Of a stretch of DNA of 64,000 nt, positions 9,681-60,899 are shown piece by piece. Every line of letters begins with the position of its first letter. Position 1 is the stretch's first letter. Origin of the DNA: Eledone cirrhosa. Its lineage: Eukaryota. Below the pieces are notes generated by a model. It was not told the DNA's origin. It did no database searches and was given only the letters and a program-made list of their open reading frames with translations. A program made the position numbers and the translations under genes. Location of the stretch: assembly GCA_964016885.1 (NCBI GenBank), contig OZ024759.1, positions 29,822,001 through 29,886,000 of the forward strand, read 5' to 3'.

Positions 9681-11768
9681 CATGCATATAAAACATGGGG
9701 CCTGCGGACCGCATGCACCCTTTACAAGCACACCTGTGGCGTGCACAAAGGTTTTTACAGCGCGAGCATGTTTTATCTTCGTAATATAAAATTAAAAATA
9801 ATTTGTTGTAATGTGTGCAATTAGTTGTCGTGTGTGGCCTTCAGACAACACATCTGTGACCCATGTGGCCCTCAGACAACACATATGTGACCCATGTGGC
9901 CCTCAGACAACACATATGTGACCCATGTGGCCTCAGACAACACATCTGTGACCCATGTGGCCTCAGACAACACATATGTGACCCATGTGGCCCTCAGACA
10001 ACACATCTGTGACCCATGTGGCCCTCAGACAAAACAAGTGTGACCCATGTGGCCCTCAGACAACACATATGTGACCCATGTGGCCTCAGACAACACATCT
10101 GTGACCCATGTGGCCTCAGACAACACATCTGTGACCCTTGTGGCCCTCAGACAACACAAGTGTGACCCATGTGGCCCTCAGACAACACATATGTGACCCA
10201 TGCAGCCCTCAGACAACACATATGTGACCCATGCAGCCTTCAGATAACACATATGTGACCCATGCGGTCCTCAGACAACACATCTGTGACCCATGTGGCC
10301 TCAGACAACACATCTGTGACCCATGTGGCCCTCAGACAACACATATGTGACCCATGTGGCCTCAGACAACACATCTGTGACCCATGTGGCCTCAGACAAC
10401 ACATCTGTGACCCATGTGGCCCTCAGACAAAACAAGTGTGACCCATGTGGCCCTCAGACAACACATATGTGACCCATGTGGCCTCAGACAACACATCTGT
10501 GACCCATGTGGCCCTCAGACAACACAAGTGTGACCCATGTGGCCCTCAGACAACACATATGTGACCCATGCAGCCCTCAGACAACACATATGTGACCCAT
10601 GCAGCCTTCAGACAACACATCTGTGACCCATGTGGCCCTCAGACAACACATATGTGACCCATGCAGCCCTCAGACAACAAATATGTGACCCATGCAGCCC
10701 TCAGACAACACATATGTGACCCATGTGGCCCTCAGACAACACATATGTGACATGTGGCCCTCAGACAACACATATGACTCATGTGGCCCTCAGACAACAC
10801 ATATGTGACCCATGCGGTCCTCAGGCAACACATATGTGACCCATGCAGCCCTCAGACAACACATATGTGACCCATGTGACCCTCAGACAACACATATGTG
10901 ACACATCTGGCTCTCAGACAACATATATGTGACATGTGGCCCTCAGACAACACATATGTGACCCATTAGGTCCTCAGACAACACATATGTGACATGTGAC
11001 CCTCAGACAACACATATGTGACCCATGTGGCCCTCAGACAACACATATGTGACCCATGCGGTCCTCAGGCATCACATATGTGACTCATGTGGCCCTCAAA
11101 CAACACATATGTGACACATGTGACCCTCAGACAACACATATGTGACACATCTGGCTCTCAGACAACACATATGTGACATGTGGCCCTCAGACAACACATA
11201 TGTGACCCATGCGGTCCTCAGACAACACATATGTGACATGTGACCCTCAGACAACACATATGTGACCCATGTGGCCCTCAGACAACACATGTGACCCATG
11301 CGGTCCTCAGGCATCACATATGTAACTCATGTGGCCCTCAGACAACACATATGTGACACATGTGGCCCTCAGACAACACATATGTGACCCATGCGGTCCT
11401 CAGGCATCACATATGTGACACATCTGGCCCTCAGGCATCACATATGTGACACATCTGGCCCTCAGACAACACATATGTGACTCATGTGGCCCTCAGACAA
11501 CACATATGTGACCCATGTGGCCCTCAGACAACACATATGTGACCCATGTAGCCCTCAGACAACACATATGTGATCCATGTGGCCCTCAGACAACACATAT
11601 GTGACCCATGTGGCCCTCAGACAACACATATGTGACACATGTGGCCCTCAGACAACACATATGTGACCCATGTGGCCCTCAGACAACACATATGTGACCC
11701 ATGCAGCCCTCAGACAACACATATGTGACCCATGTGGCCCTCGGGAGACCATCACTTTGACATACCTG
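9681..11768. mobile_element. hAT (Charlie-like) MITE inflated by an internal satellite
   Basis: Degenerate TIRs catgcatataaaac / ctttgacatacctg, near-identical 8-bp flanks gtgtagac (9673-9680) and ttgtagac (11769-11776), and subterminal ggcctgcggaccgcatg and gtggccctcg motifs. Confidence 0.7.
9833..11742. repeat. 30-31-bp minisatellite, about 60 copies
   Basis: Unit ctcagacaacacatatgtgacccatgtggcc. Confidence 0.95.
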
Positions 11769-11903
11769 TTGTAGACAATCTCAGGAACAGAAGACCTGGG
11801 TAAGCTAAAGATGTTTTTAATGGTGAAGATAATTTAGTTTAGGAAAGAATATTTGGGTGGGTCGAATATGTTTTTTTAGTATTTGATTGAAAGATCAACT
11901 TAC

Positions 11904-12207
11904 TTCTTGTATGAGGGTAGGTATTATTAACGATGCCCGGTATTTCACTGTTACCCACAATCGGGATATACGGTTCCTTGTATTTAGTAATGTTAGTGAT
12001 GGTCAGTTGATACTCCGAGCTTAGTTGGACTAACTTTGATTTTATATCCATCATCCGGTTACTGGAGCCGACAACTAGAGAGTACTGCGTCCAGTTATGG
12101 TGTAACAATAAAGAAACTATGAATTTGGTCACTTGATTGGCTGGCGGGAATGTCCGAGCAAAGGTCGGATAGATTGTCTTATTGGATACTTCATGGTTGG
12201 CACATTT
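11904..12207 (-). CDS. Internal exon (304 nt, phase 0/1) of the same receptor guanylyl cyclase
   Basis: Polypyrimidine tract plus cag ends at 12208, donor gtaagt at 11903. Translation KCANHEVSNKTIYPTFARTFPPANQVTKFIVSLLLHHNWTQYSLVV...GIVNNTYPHTR carries the S-NK-xYPTFART motif and the L-x-H-x-NW motif of ANF-receptor family domains. Confidence 0.92.
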
Positions 12208-13242
12208 CTGAAAAATAAGAAAAAAAATTTAATAATAAGTATAGGTAATATATTGGCCACACAAAATATAGGTCTTATATAGGCCTAAATCAGTTCTGCA
12301 TGAGCTGTCCTCCAACCTGACTTGTCTCACAGCAGGACAGCTCACCCAACCCTTGTTAGTGTGGAAAATGAATGTTAAACAGTGTTGATGTCGTTGATGA
12401 TGATGATGATGTTGATAAGGATGATGATGGCGATGATGATGATGATGATGATGATTATAATGATGATAATGATCATGACAATGATGATGGTGATGATTAT
12501 TGTCTTTGAACAATTGCAGTTGTTATCTTGGGCAAGTTTCCATATAAACTTTCATTTGTAATATGTTGACACCAGTTTATGCACTATCTAGTTTCTTCTA
12601 AAGTGCTTGTGTCAGGATCTTTGTACTTGATCCATACAAAAACACTGACTCAACAGATGTTATGTTCTGAAGAATAAATATTTAGATTTTTCTGGGTAGA
12701 TTAGACTTCAATATACTTTCCAGCCCAGACTTTCAGTCTAAAGGAACAAAATATTTGAGATTCTATGTTGAAGAACTTCCAACAAAAAAAACCTTCACTC
12801 ACAATCACACTCACACTGACACCTTCACTCACACTCACACCTTCACTCACACTTACACCCCGTCCACAAAAACACAAATATCATCTTACAAATCTCATTA
12901 GTGTTGCAGACAATCATTGTTTTTGTCAATATTTGAGAATGTATGTGGAAGAAATTCCAACAAAAAAATACCTTCACTCACAGTTACACTCACCCTCACA
13001 CCTTCACTCACAGTCACACTCACAGTCACACCTTGACTCACACTCTGTCCACAAAAACACAAGTATCATCTTACAAATCTCGTTAGTGCAGCAGAGAATC
13101 ATTTCGATTACTAGAAGTGACTGTTTTGTTAATATTACTTTGCAAGATTTTATTTTTTATTTTCCTTTTATTTTATTTTGTATCATTTTGTTATTTTGTT
13201 ATTTTAGTTATTATCATTATTATTATTATCATTTCATTTGAG

Positions 13243-19986: not shown

Positions 19987-20461
19987 TATATTTCTTTAGG
20001 TCGTTTTGGAAACCTCAACAATGCAGATGGGTAAATCTCCGGGTAACAAGATCCGGTGGTGGAGAGAGAGAGATGTAAGTGAATGTAGGTTGAGATGTGT
20101 AGCGTGTAGAAGAGTGTAGGAAAGAGCGTAAAGGATAAAAATAATAACACGAGATAGAGTTACCTTGGGAGAGATTTAATTCACATCCATCAACTGGGGG
20201 GGGGGGGGGGTTCCGGGAACCCCCCCCCCCCTCCCAGTTGACGGATGTGAATCCGAAATATATAGGGACAATTAAATCTCTCCCAAGGTAACTCTATCTC
20301 GTGTTATTATTTTTATCCTTTACGCTCTTTCCTACACTCTTCTACACGCTACACATCTCAACCTACATTCACTTACATCTCTCTCTCCACCACCGGATCT
20401 TGTTACCCGGAGATTTACCCATCTGCTTGTTGAGGTTTCCAAAACGACCTAAAGAAATATA
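19987..20461. repeat. ~475-bp near-perfect palindrome (fold-back element) with a hammerhead-like motif near its centre
   Basis: Arms tatttctttaggtcg...gttcc / ggaac...cgacctaaagaaata centred on 20215; about 18 nt are missing from the left arm. Homologous to 48655-48745. Confidence 0.9.
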
Positions 20462-20502
20462 CCTTATTATTCCACAATGCTTCAAGCAAACTTCAATACT
20501 CT

Positions 20503-20697
<195 letters not shown>

Positions 20698-26035: not shown

Positions 26036-27214
26036 CATAGAACCAGACACAACAACAATAACAACATCACCAACAACATTAACAGCAACAACAACTCCAA
26101 CAACAATAACTCCTACTACAGCAACATCAACGACAAGAATACCAACAACAACAACATTAACAACATCATCGAGTGAAGCAACTGTGACAAGTTCAGTAAT
26201 GAAGACAAGAGCAACAACAACAGTAACACCAACACCAACGGCAACAATGCCAACAACAATAACAACACCAACAACAACACCCAGTATTAACATGTCTATA
26301 CATAAGACTGTGCACAGTGAAGAGCTGTCATATTTGTACTTGTAGTAACAAGTCAATTATACTTTGTGTTCAAAAGTAAGGGGTTAACATTCATAGAACT
26401 ACTCTAGCTAGGTATGGGCTTGGCAACATATGACATAATTGACAACATATTTCATAAGTTTGAACATAGATGGACAGAATAAAAGACAAAAAAAGAAAAA
26501 AATGAAAAAAAAAAAAAAAAAAGATAAAAGTAAAGATAAAAAAAGAAAAAGAAAGGAAAAAGGGGAAAAAATAAAATAAAAATAAAGAAATCTACTATAT
26601 ATTTCATAAGCATAAATATAGATGGATGGGGGGAAAAAAAAAGAAACTAAAAAAGAAAGAAAATAAGAAAAAAAAGTGAAAAAGAAAAGAAAAAGAAAGA
26701 AAAAAAGTAAAAGAGAAAAAGGAAAGAAAAAAGAAAAAAGTAAAAAAGAAAAAAGAAGAAAAAGAAATAAAAAAAGAAAAAAAGAAGAAAAGGAAATAAA
26801 AAAAGAAAACCAGAATTTGATTTAAAACATCCATTAAATCAAAATGTGAGCAATGAAGAAATTTTTGAATCTGTCAGAAAAGAGCAATAATAAATGTATT
26901 GTAATATTGTTAGAAATAAGCTGGCCCCGGTAAACAAGAAAGAGAAACAAGAATAGGAAAGGAATATAAATAAAATATAATTGAGCATGCAGCAGCAACA
27001 ATTAAACACTAGTCATGTTATTGTCCAGTTTAAATTTGTAAATTAACTAATGGTTCCAATTAACTATGGCAAATTTATTTTCATGAGGAAACAGTTTTAC
27101 AAGCTTTCATTATAAGGTAGGTGTTACAGATCTCTCTCTCTATATATATATATTGGCTGGAACAGGTGAAATAATAAAAGAGTAATATATATATATATAT
27201 ATATTTGGTATGGA

Positions 27215-27810
27215 CACGTGATGCGCATGAAAGTCGATAGCTGTATAACAAAGTGCAGGGCAATAAAGATAGACGGTAGTCACGGAATAGGCAGACCTAG
27301 AAAAACCTGGGACGAGCTGATAAACTCCGACATCACACACTTACACCTCTCCAAGACAATGTCACTGGACCGAGACCTTTGGCGGTACTCAGTAACAGAG
27401 AAGACCCGCCTTACCTAAATATATAGTAAAACCTACTCCAGCCAGTAGGCATCTCTAACAAAATACACCCCGTCCCACCACCCCCACCCCATCCACACCA
27501 CCCCGTTCTATGTAAAGTTATGTTGGTGCCGCGCCATCCAGGCCAAAACAAATGAGATCGTGTAGGTGTCACGACAAAAAAACACACAGTCCACGCTGTA
27601 ATGTGGCCATGTAGGCAACACGGTAAAAACCTCCCAGACCCACACTGTAAATGTGGTTGGTGTTAGGAAGGGCATCCAACTGTAGAAAACCTGCCAGACA
27701 GTCCTATGCGAGCAAGACAATCACTCTTGCCTCAAGTGGGACTACCCCCGTCCAAACCCATGCAAGCGTGGAACACGGACGTTAAACGTTGATGATGATG
27801 ATGATGATGA

Positions 27811-27812
<2 letters not shown>
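27215..27812 (+). mobile_element. Composite RTE-derived element (ORF C-terminus + taggaagggcatcc segment + RTE tail)
   Basis: HVMRMKVDSCITKCRAIKIDGSHGIGRPRKTWDELINSDI...* then a tail ending gcaagcgtggaacacggacgttaaacg(ttg)atgatg. Inverted copies at 51793-52290, 49763-50043 and 6139-6254. Confidence 0.75.
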
Positions 27813-27851
<39 letters not shown>

Positions 27852-28041
27852 TGTAATAAACAATATAAGGCAATTATTTCATTTACTTTTCCGACGGAAT
27901 TACTTCATTTATATATATATATATATATAAGCAGAAGGGATATTCAATTTGTTGGTAATTCAACAAATATAAATGTTTATAACTGATTCAGAGCACTCGA
28001 CATGTTCCTTGGCTATGTCAAAAATTATAAAACACACTTTG

Positions 28042-28103
28042 TATTTTATCTGATGAAAGCGTACCAAAGTTTTTGGTACCCTTGAAATATATATAATAGA
28101 ATA
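28042..28103 (+). ncRNA. Type-I minimal hammerhead ribozyme, family H1 copy 1
   Basis: Stem I UAUUUUAU/AUAGAAUA; CUGAUGA; stem II AAGcGUACCAAA/UUUGGUACcCUU; GAAA; palindromic UAUAUA; AUA cleavage triplet ending at 28095. Confidence 0.8.
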
Positions 28104-28226
28104 AATATGGTTTTATAAATATAGTTTCCATTTATTTAATATCATTATATATATATCTGTGTTTATCGCGGGTTCAATCAGGGGTAACCACAGTAAGTAA
28201 GGTACTCAATACATAGCAGAGTATAA

Positions 28227-28357
28227 ATATTTAATATAGAAATGGCTTCTATAGGATTAGAACTGTTTAATTCGGGAGAAATCATCAGGGCTTTCCTGAT
28301 GATTTCTCCCGAATGAAACAATTCTAGTCCTGTAGAAGCCATTTCTATATTAAATAT
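28227..28357. repeat. ~130-bp palindrome containing a hammerhead 3' half
   Basis: Arms of about 63 bp around the spacer gcttt. The right arm has CUGAUGA (28296-28302), GAAAC and GUC (28327-28329). Confidence 0.75.
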
Positions 28358-28591
28358 ATATATATATATAGCAATAATAATAAATATTATATTGGCTGGA
28401 ACAGGTAAAAGAGTAAGAGAATAATTTATATATGTATATATATATATATAAATAAGCAAAAGGGATATTTAATTTGTTGGTAATTCAACAAATATATATG
28501 TTTATAACTGATTCGAAGCACTCAACAAGTTTTCTGGAGTATAATATCAATGATATTAAATAAATGGAAACTATATTTATAAAACCATATT

Positions 28592-28652
28592 TATTCTATT
28601 ATATATATTTCAAGGGTACCAACATTTTTGTACGCTCTCATCAAATAAAATA
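28592..28652 (-). ncRNA. Hammerhead family H1 copy 2 (core UUGAUGA)
   Basis: Reverse complement tattttat-ttgatga-gagcgtacaaaaatgttggtaccctt-gaaa-tatata-ta-atagaata. Confidence 0.65.
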
Positions 28653-28740
28653 CAAAAGTTTGTTTTATAAATATTGACATATCCAGGAACTGATAAAGTC
28701 TGGTTTCTTGGGTATATCAACATTTATAAAACAAATTTTG

Positions 28741-28784
28741 TATTTTATCTGATGAGAGCGTACAAAAATTTTGGTATCCTTGAA

Positions 28785-28793
<9 letters not shown>
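28741..28793 (+). ncRNA. Hammerhead family H1 copy 3, truncated at about the cleavage site
   Basis: tattttat-ctgatga-gagcgtacaaaaattttggtatcctt-gaaa-tatata-ta, then (TA)n. Confidence 0.65.
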
Positions 28794-28839
<46 letters not shown>

Positions 28840-28924
28840 GAAAAATTGAACAGGGACAGAACAGAGAGGCAGTACGATAAATGTTTATTAAATTCACGCT
28901 CAGGAGAGTGGGGGGTAGGTGGGG

Positions 28925-28955
28925 GACGACGTTTCGGGCATAAGCCCTTCTTCAG
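28925..28955 (-). ncRNA. Penelope-type hammerhead core in a pLTR-like segment (about 28840-29125)
   Basis: CUGAAGA-A-GGGC(UUAU)GCCC-GAAAC-GUC-GUC with a downstream AATAAA. Stem I pairing is not evident. Confidence 0.55.
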
Positions 28956-29144
28956 GTGAGAGTACAAAAGGTGTGTAGGGGAGTGGTGGAGAGACATATA
29001 GCGAAAGGAAACGGTGCGAATGAAAAATTAACAAATAAAGACAAAAATATAATAAATAATAAATAAAAATAAAGCATGATCAAAATACAAGGAATGAGAA
29101 AATTTAAAAATAAAGGCATGATCAATATATATATATATGAAAAA

Positions 29145-29535
29145 TGGAGGCACATGGCTTAGTGGTTAGCGCATTGGCCTTGCAATCGAAAAGTTGTGAG
29201 TTCAATTCTCAGACCGGGTGATCATTCTACTGCAAAGTGGTCGTGGAGGTGCCACGGCAAAAAAGCACCCAGCCCACACTGTAAAGTGGTCGTGGAGGTG
29301 CCACGGCAAAAAAGCATCCAGCCCACACTGTAAAGTGGTCGTGGAGGTGCCACGGCAAAAAAGCACCCAGCCCACACTGTAAAGTGGTCGTGGAGGTGCC
29401 ACGGCAAAAAAGCACCCAGCCCACACTGTAAAGTGGTCGTGGAGGTGCCACGGCAAAAAAGCACCCAGCACTCACTGTAAATGAGGTTGGTGTTAGGAAG
29501 GGCATCCAGCTGTAGAAATCAAGCCAGAATCAGGT
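29145..29535 (+). mobile_element. SINE B copy lacking the CORE-like centre, with a 49-bp x5 internal tandem amplification
   Basis: Head ggaggcacatggcttagtgg; unit aaagtggtcgtggaggtgccacggcaaaaaagcacccagcccacactgt, period 49. Confidence 0.85.
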
Positions 29536-29671
29536 AAAAGAGTATATATATATAATTCTTTTACGTGTTCCAGCCATCCGGTTGAGGCTGCGCTGGGTAA
29601 CCACCCTATATATATATATATATATATATATACGATATTAATAAATGGAAACTATATTATAAAACCATATT

Positions 29672-29736
29672 TATTTCATTATACATATTTCAGGGATACC
29701 ACATTAAATTATGGTATGCCTTCATCAGACAAAATA
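29672..29736 (-). ncRNA. Hammerhead family H1 copy 4 (diverged, with compensatory changes)
   Basis: UAUUUUGU-CUGAUGA-AGGcAUACCAUA..UGUGGUAUcCCU-GAAA-UAUGUA-UA-AUGAAAUA. Confidence 0.8.
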
Positions 29737-29998
29737 CAATATATAACAGTTTTACAAAAATTTGTCGCGTGCTTTATGTCGGTTATAAATATATTTACTT
29801 GTTGTATCCCAACAACTTTAAATAGAACTTTTGCATATATATATATATATATATATAACTTTGCTTCTCTTCTTGTTCTTGCTCATGATCCCAAAGCATT
29901 GTCGTGCGTGGAGCCAGGAAAAGCGGATGTAAAATGATGATGATATATATATATATATATGAGCCTTCTGGCTTAAGACAGACTTTAGACTTAGATAT

Positions 29999-30092
29999 AT
30001 ATTTATTAAAATAACAGATTAAAGTTTAAGCAAAGAATCTGATAAGGTCTGGTTTCTTTGCTTAAACTTTAATCTGTTATTTTAATAAATAT
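29999..30092. repeat. Perfect 39-bp inverted repeat with a 16-nt spacer
   Basis: atatttattaaaataacagattaaagtttaagcaaagaa and its reverse complement. Confidence 0.9.
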
Positions 30093-30178
30093 TTGCTCTA
30101 CGGTTCTTATATATTTGATATATATTTATCCTTATCGAGCCCTCTTTGGATTTTAGTCTTCAAATTTATTATTATTAC

Positions 30179-30209
<31 letters not shown>

Positions 30210-30999
30210 CCGATATAAAAGACACAGAAGCGAAAACCAACCAAACAGTGAGTGTGTTCTGTTATTAATTCTGGCAATATTACACAAATATGACCCTCAC
30301 CAAGTATAACAATATATATATATATATATGGATCAACTTATATGTTACAGATCCATCCATATATATATATATAATGTACGTATTTGTAACAGGAAAATGT
30401 ACACAGTCCATGGTAAAATTCACTTTAAAAAAAGAGGTCAGTGGATATATGTAAATTTCTGAGATTCTATCACCACACATAAAGAGAGAGGAGTAGTGTG
30501 ATTACCTCATAGTAGTCCTCTCTCTTTGCATGAATGTATGTCTGTGAGTGTGTCTGTGTTTGCATGTTTGCATGTTTACATTTATATACTCATACATATA
30601 AATGTATGTATATGCATATATGCACATATATACACATATGCGTCAGCGTATGGAAAACATTTCTAGTCTGTAATAAAACTACAGGTTCAGGATGTATATT
30701 ATCTGGTCAATAATTGTTTCTACTTTTGGCACAAGGCCAGCAATTACCCCAGTGTATTACTGCTACTTTATTTTATCGACCCCGTAAGGATGAAAGGCAA
30801 AGTTAACCTCAACGGAATATGAATTCAGAATTGTCTGGTCAATAATACTGTGACAACATGGCTATCAATAATTTTTTGTTGAATAAAAGTGGCAGACATT
30901 GTTTTAGATGAATTGAAATGTAAGGTCTTCTTTACCTGTTGTATATTTAAAATTTAAAATAATATCTTTGTTGAATGCAAATGACTACTTAGTCTCTGA

Positions 31000-40390: not shown

Positions 40391-40467
40391 ACAAAGGAAA
40401 TGTGGTAAGGAAACAGATGGACCATAACGCACCAAAGTACTCAATACTTAGGGTAGTAGAGTGGGTA

Positions 40468-40722
40468 ATAGGAACAAGTATGACCCCGATGGCAGAGCTC
40501 AAGCCATTTCGACGGCTAATTCTGGACTAAATAAGAATTTTTAGCCTGGTAAATAAATAGCCGAACTTCTCAGGGGGTAATTCCTTATACTATCTTCCCA
40601 TATAAGGAATTACCCCCTGAGAAGTTCGGCTATTTATTTACCAGGCTAAAAATTCTTATTTAGTCCAGAATTAGCCGTCGAAACGGCTTGAGCTCTGCCG
40701 TCGGGGTCATACTTGTTCCTAT
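40468..40722. repeat. 122-bp-arm inverted repeat in (TA)n carrying a hammerhead motif in each arm
   Basis: Spacer 40590-40600. Plus arm 40612-40707 reads ACCCC-CUGAGAA-long stem II (CGGCUA/UAGCCG)-GAAA-CGGC/GCCG-UC-GGGGU. Confidence 0.85.
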
Positions 40723-45977: not shown

Positions 45978-46325
45978 AAAATATTAAAAAAATAATGAAT
46001 AAAACAATGAAACAGTTCCTTATATTAAACAAAAAAAGTTCATTATTTAACGATCGTTTCTAGGACATATATGTGTTAGAATTAGCATGCATATTCAAAA
46101 GATCTATGTACAAAATTATACAAAATTATACAAACTATCAAATAGAATATACATACCAACACATACATATGCCGTCTTCAGAAATAATTTTGTACATAGA
46201 TCTTTTGAATATGCATGCTAATTCTAACACATATATGTCCTAGAAACGATCGTTAAATAATGAACTTTTTTTGTTTAATATAAGGAACTGTTTCATTGTT
46301 TTATTCATTATTTTTTTAATATTTT
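45978..46325. repeat. ~140-bp-arm inverted repeat beside (TA)n
   Basis: aaaatattaaaaaaataatg...gtacaaaattat / ataattttgtac...cattatttttttaatatttt. Confidence 0.9.
46042..46188 (-). ncRNA. Type-I hammerhead with a greatly extended stem II
   Basis: AUUAUUU-CUGAAGA-[~110-nt hairpin including the 15-bp UUGGUAUGUAUAUUC/GAAUAUGCAUGCUAA]-GAAA-CGAUCG-UU-AAAUAAU. Confidence 0.65.
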
Positions 46326-46458
46326 ATCTTGACTTTGTATTCCGTTTATCTTTCACCGAAAGTGATTTTTGAATGCATCTCTTCTTTCCATGATATCCGG
46401 ATTACATTGAGTTCTTCATACGGATTGGACACTACCGTAAACTTTTGGTAGATTTATC

Positions 46459-46527
<69 letters not shown>

Positions 46528-47112: not shown

Positions 47113-47150
47113 CGAGCTGAGGATCCGCTAAGGTGAAACAATTGTTCTCG
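47113..47150 (+). ncRNA. 38-nt minimal type-I hammerhead
   Basis: CGAG-CUGAGGA-UCCGCUAAGGU-GAAA-CAAUUG-UU-CUCG, with palindromic stem III and a very weak stem II. Confidence 0.65.
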
Positions 47151-47178
47151 GTATAGTGAACTAACTGTTGTGTAACTA

Positions 47179-47222
<44 letters not shown>

Positions 47223-47250
47223 TAGTTACACAACAGTTAGTTCACTATAC

Positions 47251-48069: not shown

Positions 48070-48828
48070 GTATGCACATATAGATGTATGTATTTATATA
48101 TGTTAAACCTAGCACAATCTATACTATATACACATACACAGTTAATCTGCCACATACATATACACCCATGTCATGTATTAGCAACATATTATTTATGGAA
48201 GGTTTCGTTTAGCTATCATATTTCTTACACAAAGTTTCAGCCAACAATTTTCTTTATTTATCTCAGAAAGACATATCTATTTGCAGTAACTTTTCTTGTT
48301 TCTACACAAGAAAACGTCTGAAAGATTTTTCACCCTTAATGGTTCACTCACAAAAATATTAAAGTCAAACATATTGATGAGAAAAGAGAGAAGTGTTACA
48401 TCTCTTGGTAGAAATCAGATATATAATACTGAAACATGTTGGGGTTGTGATATGTTGAAATTATACTTGATAGTCATAGTTGTAGTTGTATAGACATGAA
48501 ATGGTATGGTCATCATCATCATCAACTCCTGATAGTGTCATACAGTGTTTCTAGGGCATTTTAAACCTGGCAGAACCCATCCCTCTCCAGGTCTGTGGTA
48601 ACCAGCGAAGGCCATGTGTTGTCTTACTCCGATACAACTTCTTTCCCCGCAGAAAACCCCCAGTTGATGGATGTGAAATTCGAAATATAGGGACTATCAA
48701 ATCACTTCAAAGGTAAATCTATCTTGTGTTATTATTTTTTACACTTTTGGTAGGTGGATTGACAGTATCGGTAGAGGGTCGGATGCCATGCTTTGACGGC
48801 CCTTGCCATTCTGAGTTCAAATCCCGCA

Positions 48829-53279: not shown

Positions 53280-55835
53280 ATGACATCATTTTTTGTAATG
53301 ACTGAAAGAATACGATCGCAAATATAAGCGGCCGGATTGAGATTCCTCCGAAGGGTCTTTGGAGTAACGTTAAACGTTATTCGATAAAGTGCATATCTTG
53401 GAGATCAGAGAGTCACTCCAGGAAGAGCTGCTAATTCTCTGAATTGAAAGATCCCAGCTCTGGTACTATGGGTATGTGGTTAGAATGTCTCTAGGAAGGA
53501 ATTGCTGGAGAGTTGCTCCAGGTAGAGCCACTACTTCTCCGAATTGAGAGATCACAGCTCTGATACTGTGGGCATGTGGTTAGGATGTCTCAGGAAAGAG
53601 TTGCTCCAGGTAGAGCCACTACTTCTCCGAAATGAGAGATCACAGCTCTGATACTGTGAGCATGTGGTCAGAATGTCTCAGGAAAGAGTTGCTCCAGGTA
53701 GAGCCACTACTTCTCTGAATTGAGAGATCACAGCTCTGATACTGTGGGCATGTGGTCAGAATGTCTCAGGAAAGAGTTGCTCCAGGTAGAGCCACTACTT
53801 CTCTGAATTGAGAGATCACAGCTCTGATACTGTGGGCATGTGGTCAGAATGTCTCAGGAAAGAGTTGCTCCAGGTAGAGCCACTACTTCTCTGAATTGAG
53901 AGATCACAGCTCTGATACTGTGAGCATGTGGTCAGAATGTCTCAGGAAAGAGTTGCTCCAGGTAGAGCCACTACTTCTCTGAATTGAGAGATCACAGCTC
54001 TGATACTGTGGGCATGTGGTTAGGATGTCTCAGGAAAGAGTTGCTCCAGGTAGAGCCACTACTTCTCCGAAATGAGAGATCACAGCTCTGATACTGTGGG
54101 CATGTGGTCAGAATGTCTCAGGAAAGAGTCACTCCAGGTAGAGCCACTACTTCTCCGAAATGAGAGATCACAGCTCTGATACTGTGAGCATGTGGTCAGA
54201 ATGTCTCAGGAAAGAGTTGCTCCAGGTAGAGCCACTACTTCTCTGAATTGAGAGATCACAGCTCTGATACTGTGGGCATGTGGTCAGAATGTCTCAGGAA
54301 AGAGTTGCTCCAGGTAGAGCCGCTACTTCTCTGAATTGAGAGATCACAGCTCTGATACTGTGAGCATGTGGTCAGAATGTCTCAGGAAAGAGTTGCTCCA
54401 GGTAGAGCCGCTACTTCTCTGAATTGAGAGATCACAGCTCTGATACTGTGGGCATGTGGTTAGGATGTCTCAGGAAAGAGTTGCTCCAGGTAGAGCCACT
54501 ACTTCTCCGAAATGAGAGATCACAGCTCTGATACTGTGGGCATGTGGTCAGAATGTCTCAGGAAAGAGTCACTCCAGGTAGAGCCACTACTTCTCTGAAT
54601 TGAGAGATCACAGCTCTGATACTGTGGGCATGTGGTCAGAATGTCTCAGGAAAGAGTTGCTCCAGGTAGAGCCACTACTTCTCTGAATTGAGAGATCACA
54701 GCTCTGATACTGTGAGCATGTGGTCAGAATGTCTCAGGAAAGAGTTGCTCCAGGTAGAGCCGCTACTTCTCTGAATTGAGAGATCACAGCTCTGATACTG
54801 TGGGCATGTGGTCAGAATGTCTCAGGAAAGAGTTGCTCCAGGTAGAGCCACTACTTCTCTGAATTGAGAGATCACAGCTCTGATACTGTGAGCATGTGGT
54901 CAGAATGTCTCAGGAAAGAGTCACTCCAGGTAGAGCCACTACTTCTCTGAATTGAGAGATCACAGCTCTGATACTGTGGGCATGTGGTCAGAATGTCTCA
55001 GGAAAGAGTTGCTCCAGGTAGAGCCACTACTTCTCTGAATTGAGAGATCACAGCTCTGATACTGTGAGCATGTGGTCAGAATGTCTCAGGAAAGAGTCAC
55101 TCCAGGTAGAGCCACTACTTCTCTGAATTGAGAGATCACAGCTCTGATACTGTGGGCATGTGGTCAGAATGTCTCAGGAAAGAGTTGCTCCAGGTAGAGC
55201 CACTACTTCTCTGAATTGAGAGATCACAGCTCTGATACTGTGAGCATGTGGTCAGAATGTCTCAGGAAAGAGTTGCTCCAGGTAGAGCCACTACTTCTCT
55301 GAATTGAGAGATCACAGCTCTGATACTGTGAGCATGTGGTCAGAATGTCTCAGGAAAGAGTTGCTCCAGGTAGAGCCGCTACTTCTCTGAATTGAGAGAT
55401 CACAGCTCTGATACTGTGGGCATGTGGTCAGAATGTCTCAGGAAAGAGTTGCTCCAGGTAGAGCCACTACTTCTCTGAATTGAGAGATCACAACTCTGAT
55501 ACTGTGGGCATGTGGTCAGAATGTCTCAGGAAAGAGTTGCTCCAGGTAGAGCCACTACTTCTCCGAATTGAGAGATCACAGCTCTGATACTGTGGGCATG
55601 TGGTTAGGATGTCTCAGGAAAGAATCGCTGGACAGACTTTACTGGCAAAACCAACTGGCAAGAGACCCAGGGGTAGACTCCGAGCAAGATGGTTGGATAA
55701 CATCCAAGAACTTGCCTGGTGTCGCTTGGGGATCCAGCAGGATAAGTTGGAGATGGTTGCTTCTGACAGGACCGACTGGAAGGAGTGTTTGAGGACTCTG
55801 TCCCCTCAACCCTGTCAGGAATAAGTGGGCGAAGA
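53280..55835 (+). mobile_element. RTE LINE 3' fragment containing an 88-bp x24 tandem array (about 53513-55620)
   Basis: Flanks encode RFLRRVFGVT..EIRESLQ and GHVVRMSQERIAGQTLLAKPTGKRPRGRLRARWLDNI..DRTDW. ggtagagcc recurs every 88 nt from 53521 to 55545. Confidence 0.9.
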
Positions 55836-56604: not shown

Positions 56605-57478
56605 TAAGGTGTGACAGAAAAGTTCCAGGACTGATGTCACAAAAGATTTATTTCAAACCCAAACTTCACACTAAGAGTTTTCTCTCCTTCAAAGTAATCC
56701 CCCTGGAGTATGTAACTGTAATCTTAGCTCTCTGCAGCGATCAAACTTTTTTCTTCATAATTTTATATACATGTCCTCTGATTCAGGTCGTCAAGCAATG
56801 AGCACAGAGCAACGAACAAACTTGAAAAATCCGTCAGAAGCAGTAGGATTGCTGCAGCAAGTGTATGGAGATGAGACGATGTCACGCTCACATGTTTTTG
56901 AGTGGTGCAAGAGGTTTAAAGAAGGACGCGAGGACGTGGAAGATGACTCCAGGAGCGGAAGGCCCTCAACAACCAGGACTGAGGTCAACGTTGAGCGCGT
57001 CAGGCAGATGGTGCGTAGCGATCGTCGGCTGACTGTTCGACTGATGGCAAATGAGCTGGGCATGAATCGGGACAGTGTCTGGAAGATTCTCCCTGAAGAT
57101 TTGGACATGCGGAAAGTCTGCTCGAAGACGGTGCCAAAACTGCTGAACGATGACCAGAAGGATCGACTCATGCAAGTGTGCCAGGACATCCTCGAGTGTC
57201 TTGAAACCGAACCAGACTTGCTAGGGACAGTCATCACCGGTGATGAGTCATGGATCATCGAGTACGACCCAGAGGGGACCCGTTTTGAAGACGTGGACGA
57301 CATCAAAAAGGCCGTGACGATTGAACTGCGGAGGATCCCGGAAGAATCCTTCTAGGAGTGCATGCAAGCATGGCAGAAAAGGATGAAAAAGTGTATTAGA
57401 CTCCAGGGAGATTACTTTGAGGGAGAAAACTCTTAGTGTGAAGTTTGGGCAGTCCTGGAACTTTTCTGACCCACCTCA
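56605..57478 (+). mobile_element. Internally deleted mariner (Tc1/mariner) transposon
   Basis: TA target duplication; ~29-bp TIRs t(a/g)aggtg(t/g)g(a/t)cagaaaagttccaggactg. ORF has the HTH region (VFEWCKRFKEGREDVEDDSRSGRP), VPKLL and ITGDESW, joined directly to GTRFEDVDDIK..GDYFEG. Confidence 0.92.
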
Positions 57479-60346: not shown

Positions 60347-60899
60347 GCAATGGCAACAACAACAACAGAAGCAATGGCATGAAAGCAACAGAAGTGACAA
60401 CAACAACAACAGTAGCGGCAATGACAACAGTAACAGTAATAACAACAGCAGCAACAATGACAACGAAAGCAACTGCAACAACAACAACAGTAATGACAAC
60501 AACAAAATGACAACTCAGCAACAAACTCGGGCTTGAAGTCTTCAGAGCAATGTTTAATGTTTGTACATATAATTGACTTCCCAGTCAACGCAAGAGACAT
60601 ACATATAATATATATATATATATACAGGGGGTGTAACTTGGAGTTACTGCAGGTTCACTCGGGAGAGCACTCAATGTTTAGGTTCACTTCTGTGATGAGG
60701 TGTAGAGCTATACAGAGTGTAATATATTGAAAGGATAACAAGGACAAAGGGTCCGTCGAGCCGCCGATTATTGAGTCGGGTAGGATCGATACAGATCGAA
60801 CCTTGAGCTGATCAGTGGTGAAACACGTGTCACCTATCAATAAATGCAATGAAGGAGTAACCAATCGTTTTTGATATCCTTTCAATATATATATAATAT

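Follow-up and report, generated by a model that had tools for sequence, protein, structure and literature searches.

In the parts of Craig et al. 2021 considered here (PMC8557442), PLEs typically have a 5'-truncated copy in inverted orientation, together with a tail of 30-40 bp that is present at one end. The same sections describe a Hydra clade that targets (TA)n, carries canonical hammerheads and includes one Octopus family, Hydra-1_Obim, and they present Penelope-13_HM as an element whose inverted truncated copy goes with a hammerhead on each strand. Arkhipova et al. 2013, as far as covered, reported 200-bp pLTRs with inverted copies, tails and microhomology deletions and read the palindromes at the junctions as self-priming (PMC3846280), while the portions used of Cervera and De la Pena 2014 place dimer-type hammerheads in pLTRs, with pairs on opposite strands 100-700 bp apart (PMC4209133). 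For PAc, in the sections consulted of Frangieh et al. 2024, a PLE protein acts on AT-rich DNA by cutting each strand and extending both, two internal RT start sites bound the tail, and hammerhead cleavage is unneeded in vitro (PMC11167929). Retrozymes, in the parts of the sources considered, are tandem and make circles (PMC7229834; bioRxiv 10.64898/2026.07.22.740005), and the portion used of an Octopus vulgaris annotation counts 190 PLE families covering 6.8% of the genome (PMC13282606).

The repeat family analysed here, H1, is a high-copy repeat with a 140-nt hammerhead body (B) and a 96-nt tail. We think it probable that H1 derives from an endonuclease-bearing PLE, whose clade is probably Hydra, and that two-strand copying left its 3' end (pLTR and tail) in (TA)n tracts as short stubs. 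On this reading H1 is a new family of PLE 3'-end stubs; as a ribozyme or as an element class it is not new. Like H1, the Hydra-clade PLEs in the sections considered have (TA)n targets and a sense hammerhead near the 3' end with a 4-bp palindromic stem III, often with TGAA before it; stem II is long in some, and consensus sequences end about 40 nt or more than 100 nt past the cut site (PMC8557442). H1 differs from them in being without an ORF, in having no sequence match to the published consensus ends covered, and in its stem II of 8-9 bp with a C-C mismatch, its A10.1-U11.1 pair and its tail of 96 nt; by eye, its end and the Hydra-1_Obim end as given there seem unrelated. It shares with the PLE inverted-pLTR insertions of the sources consulted a pLTR of about 200 bp, an inverted copy, a one-sided tail, a palindromic junction, microhomology deletions, AT-rich targets and two 3' ends (PMC3846280, PMC11167929), but its tail is about three times longer, no frame starts in the hammerhead as it does in the PAc described there, and its target duplication, unlike theirs, is unreadable within (TA)n. 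With the PLE minimal hammerheads of the literature covered it has in common a long helix II, a palindromic helix III, a dimer design and opposite-strand pairs (PMC4209133), whereas it lacks their bulged base after A9 and, in the window copies, their G10.1-C11.1 pair, and its helix I, with 8 bp and a further distal stem, is longer.

The window (the whole stretch of DNA analysed, 64,000 nt) comes from an animal and is rich in repeats, among them an 88-bp satellite of about 24 copies (53509-55656), a 31-bp minisatellite of 62 copies (9833-11742), a mariner transposase fragment (56675-57352(+), Pfam) and SINE-like repeats which presumably resemble those of octopus. It also holds an ANF_receptor exon-like frame (11842-12228(-), Pfam E 6.7e-08), and the repeat cluster may lie in or near an ANF_receptor gene. 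None of 137 frames in the window (at least 55 aa, chosen by sequence complexity) was recognised by Pfam as RT or GIY-YIG, so the assignment of the H1 family and its clade rests on non-coding features. Short H1 motifs were absent from the parts searched of the supplements of PMC8557442 and PMC13282606, and no autonomous partner was found there or in the window; H1 may already be catalogued among the Octopus vulgaris PLE families.

Pieces, boundaries and the natural unit

The five pieces of H1 reported by a first-pass annotation of this DNA were recovered in the window by blastn and alignment (Table 1), with the common boundaries it had described at three sites each: GCA(G/A)AAG adjoining (TA)n at 27931, 28456 and 29834(-), and TAATATC at 28143, 28552(-) and 29634(-). 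The unit of about 215 bp with fixed ends that it had drawn between these boundaries did not hold up, as the joins between the distal tail piece (A) and B lie about 21 nt apart in copies 1 and 5, at short microhomologies, and in other copies A is attached to B in reverse complement. The two boundaries do not delimit a single linear element from 5' to 3'; both are 3' ends set in (TA)n, alternatives to each other that are read on opposite strands 48 and 144 nt beyond the cut site.

Table 1. Positions of H1 and of the neighbouring family H2 in the window
Feature	Position	Strand	Remark
Copy 1, piece A, distal 76 nt of the tail, antisense	27931..28006	-	91% vs positions 162-237 of 28456-28692(-) sense
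Copy 1, body B, intact type I hammerhead with extended stem I	28004..28143	+	proximal 3' end TAATATC, then (TA)n
Copy 1, stem I	28042-28049/28096-28103	+	
Copy 1, hammerhead core	28050-28056	+	
Copy 1, GAAA	28084-28087	+	
Copy 1, palindromic stem III	28087-28094	+	
Family H2, unrelated, same layout (tail, inverted arm, arm)	28157..28353	.	hairpin 28202-28222(-), hammerhead-like core 28296
Full 96-nt tail after B	28456..28551	-	distal 3' end 28456 in (TA)n; public runs of organisms A and B join B to the tail likewise
Bulged tail hairpin	28518..28540	-	4-bp stem, 2-nt bulge, 3-bp stem with G-U, 5-nt loop
Left (tail-bearing) arm, body B, hammerhead core C3U	28552..28692	-	from alignment
Palindrome centre, 18-nt motif	28690..28707	.	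also at 30039-30056, centre of another palindrome
Right arm, body B	28705..28793	+	90% identity to left arm; ends at stem III in (TA)n
Copy 5, diverged body B, intact hammerhead	29634..29757	-	core 29728, N17 29680
Copy 5, distal tail piece A, sense on +	29757..29834	+	76% vs tail positions 160-237; (TA)n end

The fullest arrangement is found at 28456-28793, where tail, inverted arm, centre and arm follow one another within (TA)n. The head-to-head inverted 5'-truncated copy characteristic of PLEs is present here as the two arms, and H1 has two further PLE traits, the one-sided tail and the sense hammerhead in a terminal repeat, as well as the Hydra-clade trait of (TA)n insertion with a canonical 3' hammerhead. 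The (TA)n setting is not exclusive to the Hydra clade, since the parts covered of PMC8557442 report a microsatellite bias for Neptune too. The start of B agrees in position within 3 nt in copies 1, 3 and 4, and the body of copy 5 is about 70% identical to the other bodies across the 5' part and the hammerhead. Piece A of copy 1 has its (TA)n end at 27930 and is truncated within the tail hairpin; copies 1 and 5 both lack the 5' arm of that hairpin, and because it is broken in both we regard them as derived forms.

The availability of public sequencing data allowed us to assess which join is the usual one. Four runs (of 15 listed; three organisms) were placed on 27860-28215, leaving out 27860-27939. 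A total of 10,832 contigs of run X1 and 30,191 reads of run X13 were placed, showing that H1 is abundant, although these counts include the neighbouring family and depth does not equal copy number. Depth collapsed at 28004-28027, the A-B join, falling in X1 to 32,260 against 212,577 (A) and 410,059 (B), in X5 to 0, and in X13 to 255 at 28013 against 955 at 27989 (A) and 1,343 at 28035 (B). The dip may in part be divergence, and up to about a quarter of the X13 depth over A may run directly into B. Towards the 3' end of B, depth climbed in all four runs. Eleven of the 15 joints listed (15 more exist) connect opposite strands, from 27998-28006 to 28126-28152, and 369 reads of X13 carry such opposite-strand A-B joints. 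The same join was seen among the 24 loose ends listed (398 more exist) in X1 (33 contigs), in X5, which is from another organism, and in X13, there with 13,045 RAD reads of a copy-5-like subfamily that possibly represent few loci. Other loose ends among those listed run from B straight into (TA)n, so that the 3' end of B continues into either the tail or (TA)n, and no piece crossing from A into B was present among the 24 listed (10,941 more exist). The depth dip and the opposite-strand joints therefore indicate that the natural sequence is B (140 nt) followed by the reverse complement of A, as in 28456-28692(-). Partial direct arrangements were seen in the public runs as a few go-back joints of 2-6 reads, and none occurred in the window. 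Searches for related loci gave 0 matches in metagenome_contigs (two patterns) and 0 in viral_contigs (one pattern).

Besides H1, masked self-comparison of the window uncovered five further insertions with a tail plus a palindrome, at 19987-20505, 28157-28353, 29961-30178, 40391-40719 and 45979-46462. At least four of the five sit in (TA)n, their arms are up to 134/134 identical, and in three of them hammerhead-like cores lie near the centre and read outward. The second of the five, H2, has high depth and microsatellite loose ends in the public runs. The loci 19987-20505 and 48659-48745 belong to a palindromic family with a hammerhead-like motif that has a well-formed, GNRA-capped stem II, GAAA, a palindromic UAUA stem III and a CCC/GGG stem I, but in which each of the three arms has CAGUUGA as its core; this would be either a core variant of the whole family or the mark of an old lineage now dead. 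The insertion at 40391-40719 is young (arms 115/117 identical) and has the tail hairpin, and its hammerhead-like motif has a very long stem II insert, a 5-bp stem III and G8A in both arms. At 45979-46462, arms identical at 134/134 positions flank a 70-nt centre and are accompanied by a tail of about 135 nt with a hairpin of 61-nt loop; no hammerhead was seen in this insertion.

Several other repeats in the window touch on the same subject. A (TA)n-flanked insertion at 60625-60897 has an antisense tail with hairpin, an inverted arm of less than 20 nt and a long direct part, which contains a degenerate hammerhead (8-nt palindromic stem III) and whose end is faintly like the stem II region of H1. 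At 28840-29130(-) lies a separate solo pLTR-like repeat with AATAAA ahead of (TA)n; its core, at 28955, is a classic PLE minimal hammerhead with a bulged A, G10.1-C11.1 and an ACGU palindrome. The type I hammerhead-like motif at 47115-47250 has an 8-nt palindromic stem III, and the 3' end of the motif and an inverted copy stand tail to tail about a (TA)n run. Finally, a short segment bounded by (TA)n runs occurs twice (86%), at 27141-27204 and 28381-28443, and may be a further fragment of a tail.

The hammerhead motif and the tail hairpin

A strict type I descriptor matched twice in the window, with cores at 28050(+) and 29728(-), and in none of 100 block shuffles; it predicts the cut site of copy 1 after 28095, where UA is found, in agreement with the position given in the first-pass annotation. 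The elements of a type I hammerhead (CUGANGA, GAAA, UH and stems I-III) are all present in copies 1 and 5, which have an 8-bp stem I, CUGAUGA, an 8-9-bp stem II with a C-C mismatch, GAAA and an 8-nt palindromic stem III. Neither arm of the palindrome has the full set: the left arm reads UUGAUGA in place of CUGAUGA, and the right arm enters (TA)n ahead of the 3' strand of stem I, which is thereby cut off. The supposed invariance of CUGAUGA is thus true of copies 1 and 5 and fails in the left arm. No hammerhead was reported by Rfam at gathering score, nor at E<=10 across 27800-30300.

Between copies 1 and 5, stem II changes from AAG/CUU to AGG/CCU and from GUACC/GGUAC to AUACC/GGUAU, and stem I retains its pairing through G-U, as had been noted for copy 1 and the fifth piece (29633-29836, there called copy 4). 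Across four copies, pairing is found in 73 of 76 cells and a change on both sides in 2 of 19 pairs, a figure reached in 59 of 500 shuffles, and both compensatory changes come from copy 5 alone; significant covariation, which the same annotation had looked to, was thus not obtained from these four copies. The hammerhead fold was probably selected in the source element, as had been proposed, although statistics on four copies do not prove it. Stem III has a predicted free energy of +4.7 kcal/mol as a monomer hairpin and of -3.2 and -2.2 kcal/mol between two molecules, and in the body of copy 1 an open core is predicted to cost 0.4 kcal/mol in folding, with a second helix extending stem I. Fold stability of the hammerhead region did not differ significantly from that of shuffles (z -1.0 to +0.9; -0.3 to -1.9). 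In a transcript across the palindrome both arms are predicted to pair, at -127 kcal/mol, which places selection on the hammerhead most likely in the source element: there it would act as a dimer in the RNA, while in a palindromic stub it would be locked in the long hairpin.

More stem II variants occur in run X13 at about 28062-28083, as short, unphased and RAD-biased loose ends, which differ in sequence and loop length yet seem to retain pairing. Inspection by eye for a coding role of body or tail found stop codons in the frames after the in-core ATG. The palindrome arms showed no G-U bias (6 vs 5) that would point to strand selection or to editing.

The tail contains a second structured feature, a bulged hairpin common to H1 and four unrelated insertions in the window. 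With a descriptor (4-bp stem, 2-nt bulge, 3-4-bp stem) we obtained 3 matches against a shuffle mean of 0.13 and maximum of 1, namely H1, 28202-28222 and 40437-40462, each at the start of the tail and on the strand of the hammerhead; with loops allowed to 70 nt there were 6 rows (5 sites) against a mean of 0.8 and maximum of 3, the descriptor having been written when the first three matches and the site at 46332 were known and that at 60667 being unforeseen. RNAalifold on the three tail hairpins returned the outer stem only, with no compensatory pair. Among the new Hydra consensus sequences in the parts covered of PMC8557442, the only clade with which published tails were compared, the hairpin is clear by eye in two of six: in the tails of Hydra-2_Amil and Hydra-2_Ajap a like hairpin has G-C replacing the first A-U pair. 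It is looser in Hydra-1_Crog and partial in Hydra-1_Amil, and the remaining two of the six end about 40 nt beyond the cut site and are tailless. A tail hairpin shared across families was not described in the literature searched, a body of work lying mostly outside subscription papers and Repbase.

How the stubs may have formed

We suggest that the GIY-YIG/RT protein of the element would nick both strands of a (TA)n tract and that its RNA would be copied from two start sites, the tail end and TAATATC. Two such copies, or one folding back, would then meet head to head and leave the order tail, inverted arm, arm. The A-B form of 215 bp might arise from a tail-side copy halting inside the tail, or from a later deletion of the inverted arm at microhomology. 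One template per insertion fits this scheme, because the arms at 28552-28793 share alleles that are in the minority in X13 (A28057G, about 30%; G28069A, about 21%; a 1-nt gap, about 16%) and arms elsewhere are near identical. Against the two-start model, random truncation leaves the fixed start of B in copies 1, 3 and 4 and the shared centre motif unexplained; a fixed RNA 5' end, a natural hairpin or copying of the whole palindrome could account for both.

The last of these would make H1 a PLE-derived non-autonomous element analogous to a MITE, in which PLE machinery acting in trans duplicates a master copy as one palindromic unit (tail, arm, fixed centre, arm). We consider this possible but unlikely. 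Besides the identical place at which B starts in the three copies, it would accommodate the very high copy number without coding sequence and the 18-nt centre motif, which has 2 matches in the window where 100 shuffles give an expectation of 0. The second match lies in the short palindrome at 29961-30178, flipped relative to that insertion's tail and between arms that are unrelated to those of H1 (homology score 25, shuffle mean 26.9). The shared minority alleles and near-identical arms, however, look as if they came from one template at each insertion, copy 5 and 60625-60897 have other joins, and no centre-spanning joint was found among the 15 listed. As for the palindrome at 29961-30178 itself, it is without a hammerhead, and its right extension has by eye a GCUC/GAGC hairpin which the descriptor did not score.

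The first-pass annotation had left open a solo pLTR or a small retrozyme-like unit. What stands of this is a mobile repeat with a hammerhead tied to PLE pLTRs; a non-LTR retrozyme, that is, a monomer of about 215 nt from tandem arrays, self-cleaved and circularised, is very improbable. In size range, low GC, type I hammerhead, weak palindromic stem III and extended stem I, H1 fits the metazoan non-LTR retrozymes of the parts considered (PMC7229834), and a derivation of retrozymes themselves from pLTRs has been proposed in the section consulted of bioRxiv 10.64898/2026.07.22.740005. In contrast to them, H1 is arranged head-to-head and not head-to-tail. The tandem head-to-tail arrays for which the annotation had suggested looking were absent from the window, and the joints listed, a partial test with 27860-27939 left out, included none that is head-to-tail; moreover, A-B is not the usual join, and its fold shows no exceptional stability (z -1.9 and -0.3). 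Least credible of all is a foldback or MITE-like DNA transposon that acquired hammerhead-like sequence, which would suit the long inverted repeats, the TA flanks and the missing coding sequence, but the one-sided 96-nt tail keeps the inverted repeats from being terminal at both ends, the arms are often unequal, and hammerhead and tail hairpin recur on one strand and in fixed order in several unrelated families.

Returning to the proposed PLE 3'-end stubs and their formation by two-strand copying, what is new here is modest: the tail hairpin as a lead and the shared centre as an oddity. A bolder reading, which we rate as rather improbable, is that the hairpin would be a cis signal kept from corals and sea cucumbers to this genome and would tell the Hydra-clade RT where to bind and start. 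Through this signal, palindromic stubs would also be able to multiply whole, as a separate non-autonomous class of PLE whose centre is fixed but flip-flops and which has, within one genome, many families unrelated to one another. The shared tail hairpin is in any event a concrete candidate for an RNA signal read by the RT. The parts covered of PMC8557442 and PMC11167929 state that the way in which inverted repeats and tails arise in PLEs is open, and a genome with many short families that keep the two start sites and the junction offers a large natural record bearing on two-strand priming versus fold-back. Furthermore, the stubs add many long inverted repeats to this genome, which would be a likely source of double-stranded RNA if transcribed.
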